From the NCBI RefSeq assembly GCF_002854065.1, contig NZ_CP024147.1: DNA of 64,000 nucleotides; one strand, 5' to 3'. How positions within the stretch are numbered: the first letter of the stretch is position 1; every line of letters starts with the position of its first letter. The translations under genes and the position numbers were made by a program. The DNA is from Escherichia coli (GTDB taxonomy: Bacteria; Pseudomonadota; Gammaproteobacteria; Enterobacterales; Enterobacteriaceae). Under the pieces are notes generated by a model. It saw only the letters and a list, made by a program, of their open reading frames with translations. It did not search any database and had not been told where the DNA came from. This document shows, in pieces, positions 33,901 to 37,426 of the stretch.

Positions 33901-34025
33901 TGGATTATGTCTCCAGGAGAAGGATGAAAAGTGTGGCAAACCGTAATCTGCAAGGCGTGCCGCTGGACAGCGATGGCGCGGCTTCATACAATCGGAGCTA
34001 ACTAAAGTGCGCTCGTATTTATTAA

Positions 34026-34334
<309 letters not shown>

Positions 34335-34348
34335 TCTCTTCCACGCAG

Positions 34349-34375
34349 AGGCGCCGCAAGGCGCCTTATTTTTTA
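34349..34375 (+). terminator. zapB rho-independent terminator
   Basis: aggcgcc-gcaa-ggcgcct then tattttttac; overlaps the stop codon of the following minus-strand ORF. Confidence 0.5.
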
Positions 34376-35089
34376 CTTCACTGTATTTTTAGCAGACAAC
34401 ATAATCTCCATCGCCTGTTGGCGATATTTATCTGCCGTATCTGGCTCCATTAATGCAATGATCCCCACAGCCCTGGGGGTGTCTTCAAGATAAACACTGA
34501 TGGTTCTTTTCTGCTGACCATCAAAATTTATCAACACATCCTGATACTTACAGGTGAAATGTTTGGCATTACAATCATGAAACTGGAAGGTTTCTTCATT
34601 GTATTGATCCTTGAGATTGTCTCGCTGCATCTTCTTTAACTCTTCCAGCGAGTCATCGGCGCTACGTCCTGCGGGCAGGCGGAAAGCAGAAATAAAGACG
34701 CTATTATCTTCACTTCTTATATCAATGGTTTTATCAGTACTAATAGAAACCGTATTCCAGTGTCGGTTTGGGACAGTCACGGAAATAGCTGCCTTCTCAA
34801 ACGTATAGTGCCACGGGGTGAACAGACGAAACGTATTGCCGACGTTGGATAAAAGCAGGACTCCCAATACCCAACAGTACCCGCGAGTAAAACTGGCGAA
34901 GTTACGCGTTTTTTTAGTGAATGTGCACAGAATACCTGACACAAGCACGGGAAGTAATAACGGCCCAAGAAGTACTGAACCGATATACTCGCCAACCATC
35001 CCAGGATCTCCAGTAAGCAAGTTACTGTGCTGAAGATGACTAAGAAAAATAGTTATTATCCATAGTATTAATAAGATAACGTATCTCAT
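34373..35089 (-). CDS. Hypothetical membrane protein, island gene 2 (238 aa; three predicted N-terminal TM helices plus ~140-aa C-terminal domain); paralog of the upstream ORF
   Basis: Long ORF in an AT-rich insert; shares motifs with 35122-35808 (KKtR..F.RG.CW..G..L, YTF, TVTVP, DPD..D.Y..E.M..MLSA). Confidence 0.6.
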   Translation of the reverse strand: MRYVILLILWIITIFLSHLQHSNLLTGDPGMVGEYIGSVLLGPLLLPVLVSGILCTFTKKTRNFASFTRGYCWVLGVLLLSNVGNTFRLFTPWHYTFEKAAISVTVPNRHWNTVSISTDKTIDIRSEDNSVFISAFRLPAGRSADDSLEELKKMQRDNLKDQYNEETFQFHDCNAKHFTCKYQDVLINFDGQQKRTISVYLEDTPRAVGIIALMEPDTADKYRQQAMEIMLSAKNTVK

Positions 35090-35121
35090 ATCAATCCATT
35101 ATTATTAACATGCACATCAGA

Positions 35122-35808
35122 TCATTGACGAGCAGAAAGCATCATTTTCATTACTTCTTCTTGATATTCGTCCAAATAATCTGGGTCGATAGCTGCGACC
35201 AGTTGTATCAAATTAGTGTTATCCAGTAGAGTCATGAAAATAACATGTCTTACTTTGCCATCACTCATTGTTTGCACTCCTTCTTGATAAGCGCAGGCAA
35301 ATCCCTGAACATCACAAACATGCATTTCTGCAGTTCCGTTTTGAGTCGCGGTAAGTTCCTCGATTGAATGCACACCGAGTTCATTTTGTGAGAAGGCAAC
35401 AATAGCTAAAATAGCATGGGCATCCCGGGTCACCAGGGTTGGTCCTTGTTTTACTATATTGGCAACCCACTGTTTGCTCGGAACCGTGACGGTGATACCT
35501 GGCTCCGGGAAAGTATAATCCCATATGCTGTGTCGTTCCCACACCGTATAGCTGCTATAGATAAGAAATAATCCCATTAACCAACAAGTGCCGCGAATAA
35601 AGCTGCGGCTGCTTCTTTTTTTTATCGTTATACAGATGATTGTGGCGATAATAAATGATAAGGCAAGTGGGTTAAAAAATACGTTAGCAAAATATAAAAT
35701 CATTTCACCCGCGTTGCCAGATAAAAGAAATTTGTAGCGGAAATGGTTAACGGCTATAAGTAATAAATATATAAATAAAAGAATAATATTCTGCATGAAT
35801 ACGTCCAT
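35122..35808 (-). CDS. Hypothetical membrane protein, island gene 1 (228 aa; same architecture as its paralog)
   Basis: Long ORF, AT-rich, paralogous to 34373-35089; start codon lies 4 nt after the rraA terminator T-run. Confidence 0.6.
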   Translation of the reverse strand: MDVFMQNIILLFIYLLLIAVNHFRYKFLLSGNAGEMILYFANVFFNPLALSFIIATIICITIKKRSSRSFIRGTCWLMGLFLIYSSYTVWERHSIWDYTFPEPGITVTVPSKQWVANIVKQGPTLVTRDAHAILAIVAFSQNELGVHSIEELTATQNGTAEMHVCDVQGFACAYQEGVQTMSDGKVRHVIFMTLLDNTNLIQLVAAIDPDYLDEYQEEVMKMMLSARQ

Positions 35809-35840
35809 GTATAAAAAAGGGGAATTTAATTCCCCTTTTA
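35809..35840 (-). terminator. rraA rho-independent terminator
   Basis: aaaagggga-atttaat-tcccctttt hairpin followed on the minus strand by a T-run. Confidence 0.45.
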
Positions 35841-35855
35841 ACGCATGGCAGATAC

Positions 35856-36341
35856 TTATTCAATATCCAGCGGATCTTCTGAAAGAATAATCCCGGTATT
35901 GTCGGCATAAAGATGGTCGCCGGAGAAGAAGGTAACACCGCCAAAATTGACGCGGACATCGCTTTCGCCAATGCCTTCGCCAGCGGCACCAACCGGAATT
36001 GCCGCCATCGCCTGGATGCCGATATCCAACTCTTCCAGGTCATCTACCTGACGCACCGCGCCGTAAATGACCAGACCTTCCCATTCATTTTGTACTGCCA
36101 GACGCGCCAGTTCAGCATCGACCAGTGCGCGACGAACAGAACCACCGCCATCGACGACAAGAACACGACCACGGCCATTCTGTTCGAGCAGATCGTACAG
36201 CAACCCGTTGTCCTCGAAACATTTTACCGTGATTATTTGTCCGCCAAACGACGCCCGTCCGCCAAAGTTGGAGAACAGCGGTTCCACGACGTTAACATCT
36301 TCTTGATAGATGTCACAAAGCTCGGAAGTATCGTATTTCAT
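35856..36341 (-). CDS. rraA: RNase E inhibitor RraA
   Basis: 161-aa [26 protein letters not shown]... Confidence 0.9.
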
Positions 36342-36433
36342 AGGCTTAACATTCAGTTGCTGCGAGAATTTTCAGTATATCGCGCTATGTGGTCTGTTGG
36401 CAAAATCATCAATTGTTAATTGATATTTGTCAG

Positions 36434-37360
36434 TTATGCTGCCCACTGGCTTAGGAATATCCCTACAACAAACAGCAGGTTAGTCAGTAACGCTCCCTTG
36501 ACAGTGCGTTCCAGCATCGGTCGCATCGCCACCGGGTCCATTTCCCGCATCACATAACGGGCTTGCTTCACCAGCAACGGTGCCGCCAGCAGGAACAGCC
36601 AGCCCCACAGGCTATGCAGCGAAAAGAGATTAAACAGCGCCAGACATACCAGAGAGCCCATCAGCAGGCAGGCATGATAACGACGCGCGTTCACTTCACC
36701 TAAGCGCACCACCAGCGTGTTTTTGCCGTTTTCGCGGTCGCTATTGATATCACGCAGGTTATTAATGTTCAGTACTGCCGTTGCCAGCAGGCCGCATGCG
36801 GTCGCCGGAAGGATCAGTGCCGGAATCAATGTATGAGCCTGTAAATACCAGCTCCCCATGACGCTTAACCAGCCAAAGAAAACCAGTACGGAAATATCAC
36901 CCAGACCGATATAACCATAAGGACGATTGCCCACGGTGTAGGTGATAGCGGCAATGATCGACAACCCGCCAAGAATCAGGAAACCGACAAAATCAGCCAG
37001 CGTATGGCATGCCACTGCAACCAGTGCCAGCCCAGAGAGACAGATGAGCACGACGGTAATAATGAGCGCCCGTTTCATCTCTTGCTGGGTAATGACCCCT
37101 TTTTGCATGCCGCGTAGCGGCCCAATGCGGTCAGGTTTATCGCTGCCTTTTACTGCATCGCCGTAATCATTGGCGAGGTTAGAAAGGATCTGTAATAGCC
37201 CGGCGGTAATCAGTGCCAGCAGGGCGACCAGCGGATCAAAATGACCTTGCCACCATGCCAGCGCCGTCCCGACGATAATTGCAGCAAAGGCGAGGGGGAG
37301 GGTTTTAGGTCGTAAACTTTCCAGCCACGCCTGAGTTCGGCTAATTTGTTGTTCAGTCAT
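36434..37360 (-). CDS. menA: 1,4-dihydroxy-2-naphthoate octaprenyltransferase
   Basis: 308 aa from MTEQQISRTQAWLESLRPKTLP... Confidence 0.9.
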   Translation of the reverse strand: MTEQQISRTQAWLESLRPKTLPLAFAAIIVGTALAWWQGHFDPLVALLALITAGLLQILSNLANDYGDAVKGSDKPDRIGPLRGMQKGVITQQEMKRALIITVVLICLSGLALVAVACHTLADFVGFLILGGLSIIAAITYTVGNRPYGYIGLGDISVLVFFGWLSVMGSWYLQAHTLIPALILPATACGLLATAVLNINNLRDINSDRENGKNTLVVRLGEVNARRYHACLLMGSLVCLALFNLFSLHSLWGWLFLLAAPLLVKQARYVMREMDPVAMRPMLERTVKGALLTNLLFVVGIFLSQWAA

Positions 37361-37426
37361 AATACGCGCCAATAAAAATGGGGCCTTTCAGCCCCATCAA
37401 ACAATGATGAAAATGATTGAACGCGA

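Follow-up and report, generated by a model that had tools for sequence, protein, structure and literature searches.

A conserved terminator-like hairpin separates rraA from an accessory pair of membrane-protein genes in Escherichia coli

Introduction

The T1 element between rpsU and dnaG in the Escherichia coli rpsU–dnaG–rpoD operon is an intrinsic terminator that lies inside an operon and attenuates its transcription. Here we analyse a comparable arrangement behind rraA in a 64,000-nt stretch of E. coli DNA (assembly GCF_002854065.1, contig NZ_CP024147.1; hereafter the window). As at T1, a GC-rich hairpin followed by a U-tract stands between genes of the same strand, the scans found no promoter of threshold quality for the downstream genes in the gap, and partial read-through would give weaker expression of those genes. 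Unlike dnaG and rpoD, the downstream genes (ORF1 and ORF2) are accessory (~12% of E. coli) and AT-rich, read-through into them is putative, and the hairpin is also the sole terminator available to rraA.

Two further hairpins invite comparison. At the hslU–menA junction of the same window (37427–37363), the T-run of the hslU terminator hairpin, GGGGCTGAAAGGCCCC, ends 10 nt before the menA ATG, which likewise has a poor Shine–Dalgarno (SD) sequence. The menA transcription start site (TSS) mapped in strain EDL933 lies 58 nt upstream, ahead of the hslU hairpin, so that menA mRNA must traverse the terminator; unlike ORF1, menA has a mapped promoter just 5′ of its hairpin, and the TSS listed for EDL933 include no equivalent for ORF1. 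In K-12, a bidirectional terminator between the convergent genes zapB and rraA has the same symmetrical palindrome of A-tract, stem and T-tract. The hairpin of the alleles that carry ORF1 and ORF2 (the island alleles) is unrelated to it in sequence and is followed by a gene of the same orientation as rraA, so that it no longer separates a convergent pair. For the encoded proteins, the closest folds are those of PsbP/Mog1/DUF1795-like proteins (DcrB, the T6SS Eag chaperones and Tsi3), the likeness residing in the fold of the C-terminal domain; the ORF products differ from PsbP/DUF1795 proteins in lacking a sequence-family match and in having their own N-terminal anchor of three transmembrane helices.

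Results

Two ORFs fill the interval between two terminators

The gene order in the window is glpK, glpF and zapB (plus strand, zapB at 34089–34334), followed on the minus strand by ORF2, ORF1, rraA, menA, hslU and hslV. The rraA coding sequence (35856–36341, minus strand; 161 aa), identified from the ORF list, the RefSeq annotation of matching genomes and comparison with K-12, ends with TAA at 35858–35856. It is preceded by the promoter TTGCCA-18-TATACT (36374–36403, minus strand), which scored 10/12 matches in our promoter scan and implies a transcription start at 36367. Downstream of rraA on the same strand come the hairpin (35813–35839), ORF1 (35122–35796; 224 aa from its likely true start), a 32-nt spacer (35090–35121) with a weak SD, GGA, at 35097–35095 and ORF2 (34373–35089; 238 aa), which is a paralogue of ORF1 (30% identity, BLASTP E = 1e-30). 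On the plus strand, the zapB terminator (34348–34374), a hairpin with a T-run found by the terminator scan and evident in the sequence (−16.1 kcal/mol), closes the interval, and the ORF2 stop codon (34375–34373) falls within its T-run. ORF1 and ORF2 fill the exact interval between the rraA-side and zapB hairpins, which holds no other ORF; the zapB hairpin is likely to act in the minus-strand direction as well, as the 3′ boundary of read-through transcripts.

The hairpin behind rraA resembles an intrinsic terminator

A repeat search revealed the palindrome AAAAGGGGAATT/AATTCCCCTTTT at 35839–35815 on the minus strand, with 12-nt arms that are 100% complementary, beginning after a 16-nt spacer that follows the rraA stop codon. 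The resulting terminator-like element, AAAAGGGGAAT-TAA-ATTCCCCTTTT followed by TT (35813–35839, minus strand), was recovered by the terminator scan and the repeat search and was supported by a shuffle test: a 91-nt segment folds at −28.8 kcal/mol, compared with −15.0 ± 2.9 kcal/mol for shuffled sequences (z = −4.7; as good a fold in 0/200 shuffles). The core, GGGGAAT-TAA-ATTCCCC, has 7 bp, four of them G–C, and a 3-nt loop, and A:U pairs extend the stem to 11 bp; the energy is −12.8 kcal/mol for the hairpin and −8.4 kcal/mol for the core. Six consecutive T residues (35818–35813) directly follow CCCC. The element thus combines what marks an intrinsic terminator, namely a GC-rich stem with a short loop, a U-tract, proximity to a stop codon and a conserved structure, and its A-tract and T-tract are symmetrical, like those of a bidirectional terminator. 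A search of Rfam with positions 34000–37500 returned nothing above noise.

We judged conservation of the hairpin from the fold of each sequence, because variation in stem length misaligns the columns used for pair counting. Five stems of different sequence, drawn from Escherichia, Salmonella and other enterobacterial loci, each gave a fold of between −12.5 and −16.7 kcal/mol; among the alleles compared, the window has the weakest core. The hairpin, with differing stems, is kept in every island allele, in Salmonella and in the other enterobacterial loci, and is absent from K-12. The match between K-12 and the window ends at the rraA stop codon (TGA in K-12, TAA in the window), beyond which the two diverge; the zapB–rraA spacer of K-12 is 84 bp of unrelated sequence with a different hairpin, GGCACC-GCAA-GGTGCC. 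We therefore rejected the idea that the hairpin is the K-12 rraA terminator with the island inserted behind it, since K-12 differs from the stop codon onwards and has a hairpin of its own. On the alleles compared, the hairpin is one that travels with the island.

ORF1 probably starts at the second of two in-frame ATG codons

The first-pass annotation placed the start of ORF1 at the ATG at 35806–35808 (ATG1, minus strand), which opens a 228-codon ORF ending at 35122, and drew attention to a gap of only 4 nt between this codon and the T-run. That gap is exact: the T-run (35818–35813) is followed by ATAC (35812–35809) and then by ATG1 (35808–35806). The accompanying observation that ATG1 has no SD also held, the best anti-SD duplex scoring +1.9 kcal/mol on an upstream sequence of T6-ATAC. 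A second ATG (ATG2, 35796–35794) lies in frame 12 nt downstream of ATG1 and 16 nt past the T-run, and is preceded at 7-nt spacing by GGA (35804–35806, minus strand), which overlaps ATG1. With an anti-SD duplex of −4.0 kcal/mol this SD is weak, yet stronger than that of rraA itself, which scores only −0.6 kcal/mol.

Annotation and comparison both point to ATG2. NCBI starts ORF1 there in the O157:H7 strains FRIK804, Sakai (ECs_4855) and EDL933. ORF2 aligns from its own Met to the ATG2 Met (MRYVILL against MQNIILL), and all full-length relatives found among 1.84 billion protein representatives are 227–241 aa long and begin M-R/K-Y/F-I/V, aligned with the same Met. The orthologue on a contig identified as Salmonella enterica by an exact MenA match (L006) is 51% identical, occupies the same position behind rraA and reads ACAAGGATGTATTTATG; it has AAG where the window has ATG1, so that a canonical AAGGA is formed 7 nt before the conserved ATG. 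The SD position is kept more widely, as GGA in two further enterobacterial contigs (L018 and L019) and as AAGGA in L006. Opening the region from −18 to +14 for the ribosome would cost 20.2 kcal/mol at ATG1, where the hairpin must melt, compared with 10.8 kcal/mol at ATG2. Together, these observations suggest that ORF1 probably starts at ATG2 and that ATG1 is not the main start. A different true start with a normal SD had been named as one of the findings that would overturn the earlier picture; a different start is indeed probable, but its SD in E. coli is weak.

For ORF2, the weak SD noted earlier was borne out (TGGATTGAT-ATG, −3.1 kcal/mol), and other alleles have AAGGGA in this spacer where the window has GGA. 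NCBI annotates a shorter ORF2 of 208 aa starting at 34999; the family alignment favours the long form of 238 aa.

Promoter scans and mapped starts point to probable read-through

We scanned for sigma-70-like promoters with a threshold of at least 9/12 matches. Along the minus strand, no site reaching the threshold lies between the rraA promoter and ORF1, and the next two sites lie inside ORF1. A promoter within rraA, one of the routes that the first-pass annotation had offered, found no support, since the minus strand from 36374 to 35720 holds no site of at least 9/12 and the relaxed scan (36345–35780) yielded at most 8/12. As noted in the first-pass annotation, the gap between the terminator and ORF1 (4 nt to ATG1, 16 nt to ATG2) is too short to hold a promoter. 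Because no sigma-70-like site reaching the threshold separates the rraA promoter from ORF1, read-through, another of the routes offered, is the most economical way to a full-length ORF1 transcript, and ORF1 most likely depends on it.

Cappable-seq data for EDL933 (Zehentner et al. 2023, PMC10469882) bear on both promoters. The rraA TSS listed there lies 26 nt 5′ of the ATG (28 in K-12) and maps to window position 36367, and in PMC11288022 PrraA is presented as sigma-S dependent and as the sole promoter of rraA in E. coli. Among the Cappable-seq entries listed, the ORF1 orthologue, EDL933_RS25985, is found only with the genes whose TSS lies downstream of the annotated start, a list described in the text of PMC10469882 as holding genes that have no TSS in the 250 bp upstream. 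Its single entry, TSS 5007791, was recorded in one of eight conditions, stationary phase in M9 (PMC10469882). This position corresponds to window position 35684, exactly 7 nt past the −10 element of the promoter-like site CTGGCA-18-TATATT (35691–35720, minus strand), which our scan found within ORF1 and which is identical in sequence in both strains. RNA starting at 35684 would be without the first 37 ORF1 codons and can therefore only serve ORF2 or be incidental transcription. TSS data, proposed earlier as a check, thus yield for ORF1, among the EDL933 entries listed, an internal 5′ end at 35684 and none upstream. Leaderless initiation, also raised earlier, is disfavoured: the sequence ~7 nt 5′ of either ATG is the 3′ arm of the hairpin and the T-run rather than a −10 element, and the entries listed contain no TSS there.

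Both ORFs encode members of a small membrane-protein family

Compared with other E. coli, E. albertii, Escherichia sp. and Salmonella, dN/dS was 0.21–0.45 for ORF1 and 0.11–0.43 for ORF2, and 0.00–0.04 for rraA over the same comparisons. These ratios argue that ORF1 and ORF2 are both real genes under purifying selection; together with the orthologues, they led us to reject the idea that ORF1 is not a gene. In each product, three transmembrane helices accompany a PsbP/DUF1795-like domain, which in ORF1 is C-terminal and alpha/beta. The AlphaFold model (pLDDT 76) has three N-terminal helices and a beta-rich domain, and the C-terminal domain (~135 residues) matched PsbP structures in Foldseek (E = 7e-6 to 1e-4; TM 0.5–0.6 on the target). 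Matches of the soluble domain in AFDB include entries labelled PsbP C-terminal or DUF1795. Neither ORF had a significant match in Pfam (no E below 0.05), NCBIfam, PADLOC or PHROGs; the family is tiny, with 34 representatives among 1.84 billion proteins. A literature search with ECs4854, ECs4855, Z5474 and Z5475 retrieved no relevant paper, and these locus tags were not found in the available supplement text of Landstorfer 2014, Neuhaus 2016 and Hücker 2017.

The gene pair has been kept behind rraA in some lineages and lost in others

We found the two-gene allele, with both genes behind the rraA terminator, in 657 of 5426 complete E. coli genomes (~12%) and a one-gene allele in 19; the rest are without this hairpin. 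The one-gene allele, which also occurs in the E. albertii type strain, E. whittamii and Escherichia sp. E1V33, has the same hairpin and TTTTTTATA, separated from ORF2 by ~215 nt of AT-rich DNA. The first ~90 nt of this spacer are 75–85% identical to the ORF1 leader and first codons, with ATG2 changed to ATA; since the spacer aligns with the 5′ end of ORF1 and ATG2 is mutated, we regard the one-gene allele as a decayed two-gene allele.

E. albertii, the Salmonella contig and other enterobacterial contigs carry the same genes behind rraA. The layout of a stop codon, ~16 nt, a hairpin, T6, ~16 nt and an ATG is common to three lineages, namely E. coli/E. albertii, Salmonella (L006) and enterobacterial L018, in which the hairpin is followed by a gene 16 nt past the T-run; the ORF1 proteins of these lineages are 36–51% identical to that of the window. 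In L019 and L021 the hairpin is followed by a remnant, MQVILF and a stop, and then by an ORF2-like gene, and in L022–L024 by a 250-nt spacer. AFDB also holds a Klebsiella oxytoca homologue of 238 aa with 37% identity, which hints that L018 may be Klebsiella.

The island has a GC content of 33–47%, compared with 50–55% in the flanks, and thus combines atypical composition with a patchy distribution. We found no flanking direct repeats, insertion scars or mobility genes at the island. Synonymous divergence from E. albertii is 0.25–0.27 for the ORFs and 0.28 for rraA; the similarity of these values argues that the genes have long resided beside rraA. The word island, if taken to mean a recent insertion, is therefore doubtful, given the same genes at the same site in other genera and the lack of flanking repeats or mobility genes. 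These patterns suggest that the locus is old and has often been lost.

Discussion

We propose that rraA, ORF1 and ORF2 are transcribed as a single same-strand unit in which an intrinsic terminator after rraA acts as an attenuator, a reading to which, with the read-through, its extent and the use of ATG2 that it presupposes, we assign a probability of roughly 0.55. RNA polymerase would start at the rraA promoter (TSS ~36367), possibly also at the upstream menA or hslVU promoters, and most transcripts would end at the hairpin and U6 (35839–35813). The fraction that reads through would carry ORF1 and ORF2 up to the zapB hairpin; the hslU–menA junction offers a precedent for such passage within the window. 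ORF1 would then be translated from the ATG at 35796–35794 with the weak GGA SD, a start codon which, 16 nt past the U-tract, would be far enough away to let a ribosome bind while the GC core of the hairpin stays paired, and ORF2 would be translated from its own weak SD, 32 nt past the ORF1 stop. The weak promoter in ORF1 (TSS 35684) may add transcripts serving only ORF2 in stationary phase.

How much RNA passes the hairpin is the point at which this proposal meets its main rival. Its perfect U6 tract gives the hairpin the look of an efficient terminator, in which case very little RNA might read through, and both genes might ordinarily be essentially silent, the AT-rich DNA being bound by nucleoid proteins, full-length ORF1 rarely being made and expression coming only from sporadic internal or condition-specific promoters. 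The low GC content of the island relative to its flanks fits this account, as do the one weak TSS among the EDL933 entries listed, seen in one of eight conditions and inside ORF1, the decay of ORF1 in a minority of lineages (19 E. coli genomes, the E. albertii type strain, E. whittamii and L019) and our finding no paper that names these genes in its main text. Against it, ORF1 dN/dS is 0.2–0.45 over E. coli, E. albertii and Salmonella distances and the frames are intact in 657 genomes, which argues that the product is selected and therefore expressed. We consider such silence under ordinary conditions unlikely. The suggestion in the first-pass annotation that the island is largely silent is matched by the sparse transcription signals, namely the single EDL933 TSS among the entries listed, and fits poorly with purifying selection on both ORFs. 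Nucleoid proteins may keep the AT-rich island silent in the laboratory, and such silence is compatible with read-through expression elsewhere, so that this rival overlaps the main explanation. Another possibility is that ORF1 has a cryptic promoter of its own, overlapping the terminator or the rraA 3′ end. The most notable example, CTGCCA (35851–35846)-17-TAAATT (35828–35823), has an 8/12 match at correct spacing in the relaxed scan and would start RNA in the T-run, with a leader of ~20 nt that still holds the GGA; spurious promoters are, moreover, frequent in AT-rich DNA. It nevertheless falls under the scan threshold, its −35 is not conserved in Salmonella (1/6 matches) nor its −10 in L018, and the EDL933 entries listed include no ORF1 TSS upstream of the start. 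This hairpin-overlapping candidate was rejected as weak and unconserved in L006 and L018, and we regard such a promoter in general as very improbable.

The remaining alternatives concern translation. ATG1 could be the true or a co-equal start, used in spite of lacking an SD by ribosomes that terminate at the rraA stop 47 nt upstream or by standby binding to A/U-rich RNA. In its favour, three of the four lineages compared (E. coli, L018 and L019) keep ATG-GAY-GTA-NNN-ATG (M-D-V-x-M) in frame, and UniProt holds a 228-aa form from strain UMN026; this conservation makes an additional or minor start at ATG1 possible. As the principal start, however, ATG1 seems quite improbable to us, considering that the Salmonella orthologue has AAG at that position, that every other family member opens at the Met beginning transmembrane helix 1, that SD pairing is absent (+1.9 kcal/mol) and hairpin melting needed (20.2 kcal/mol), and that the same bases are accounted for as the SD and spacer of ATG2. 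The rraA–ORF1 spacer might instead be a regulatory structure. In both L006 and L018, spacer bases just past the rraA stop pair with those around the ORF1 SD and form a helix of 11–12 bp that encloses the terminator (in L006, UACAUCCUGUA with UAC-AGGAUGUA), with energies of −13.6 and −9.6 kcal/mol, respectively, compared with about −3.8 ± 1.9 kcal/mol for shuffles (p = 0.0005 and 0.008). Translation of ORF1 could then be coupled to that of rraA, occurring only when the ribosome finishing rraA opens the outer helix that masks the SD. Both sides of one pair change between E. coli (CCA..UGG) and Salmonella (CCU..AGG), and the helix is missing from L019, where ORF1 is a remnant. In the window, however, the outer helix has only 5+2 bp and is no better than chance (p = 0.10–0.15), for which reason we rejected it as the explanation there, and the comparison covers only three independent lineages; SD masking relieved by rraA-finishing ribosomes is unlikely in the window, and coupling as the general account of the spacer is most improbable. 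It is similarly a long shot that the spacer is a conserved composite RNA element, a terminator hairpin nested within an outer helix that hides the ORF1 ribosome-binding site, with downstream expression needing both read-through and the arrival of a ribosome at the rraA stop; the statistics support the outer helix in L006 and L018 and not in the window; if true, it would tie an accessory membrane-protein pair to a sigma-S-controlled RNase E regulator.

A unit in which ORF1 and ORF2 are reached by read-through from rraA would be an ordinary, conserved, terminator-separated gene string, and no concept of gene expression is changed by it. The main value of the analysis lies in annotation: the 228-aa ORF1 start in some databases is probably four codons (12 bases) too long, and the 208-aa NCBI form of ORF2 probably 30 codons too short. 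The locus also offers a simple natural system for asking how much terminator read-through keeps accessory genes under selection. As a likely extension of the rraA unit, the ORF pair is possibly linked to stationary phase and sigma-S, and it represents a small, fast-evolving family of PsbP-like membrane proteins that several enterobacterial genera have retained behind rraA, with repeated losses.

The placement of ORF1 directly behind the rraA terminator has a counterpart elsewhere in the window, at the junction of the hslU terminator and the menA start (37363-37429, minus strand), where the architecture is the same. There, the menA ATG lies 10 nt past the end of the hslU terminator (GGGGCTGAAAGGCCCC plus ATTTTTATT) and is preceded by a poor Shine-Dalgarno (SD) sequence. 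The menA transcription start site has been mapped 58 nt upstream, before the hslU terminator hairpin (PMC10469882), and the menA mRNA must therefore read through that terminator.

Comparison of the island boundaries (window positions 34334-34375 and 35856-35858) with the K-12-type locus (L002, 1412-1501) revealed that, on each side, the point where island-bearing and K-12-type genomes begin to diverge coincides precisely with the stop codon of the flanking gene; these stop codons are TAA/TAA in the former and TGA/TGA in the latter. In the rraA orientation, the terminator of K-12 rraA is GGCACC-GCAA-GGTGCC-T6, which is similar to the zapB terminator of the window in the zapB orientation (GGCGCC-GCAA-GGCGCC-TTATTTTTT). 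The T-run of this zapB terminator contains the ORF2 stop codon.

A third allele of the zapB–rraA spacer carries ORF2 alone (L014, 2740-3000; likewise L015, L016 and L017). In this allele, the same hairpin as in the window is followed by approximately 215 nt of AT-rich DNA, which opens with a decayed ORF1 5′ end whose ATG is now ATA, and then by ORF2 with a better SD sequence (AAGGGA) than in the window. It occurs in 19 of the 5,426 complete E. coli genomes, and also in the E. albertii type strain, E. whittamii and Escherichia sp. E1V33.

For ORF2, a predicted 238-aa form starting at 35089 is favoured by the alignment of the family and by the synonymous nature of changes upstream of position 34999. 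The NCBI start is the internal ATG at 34999 (region 34997-35011, minus strand), which yields 208 aa and omits the first transmembrane helix; this ATG is preceded at 8 nt by GGAG, a good SD for the short form, and initiation here is possible. The genome of E. coli strain 100416 is 100% identical to the window over the island locus apart from an IS1 at the ORF2 5′ end (L005, 1334-2031), where the annotation gives a shorter hypothetical protein (576 nt). Antisense transcription of the island may arise from a promoter-like site predicted on the plus strand inside ORF1 (GTGATA-16-TATAAT, 35492-35519; 10/12 matches).

The Salmonella spacer is a variable hot spot as well. On an S. enterica contig (L006, 6497-7400), the interval from the ORF2 orthologue to zapB contains a Y1 transposase of the REP-associated type (PF01797) together with palindromic sequences that resemble repeats. 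It also includes an ORF of 31 codons, which overlaps the stop of the orthologue. In another enterobacterial genome (L026, 1251-2501), a convergent lipoprotein gene (PF03180) separates rraA from an ORF2-like gene, which has its own 390-nt upstream region. The ORF1/ORF2 family is therefore not always located directly behind the rraA terminator.
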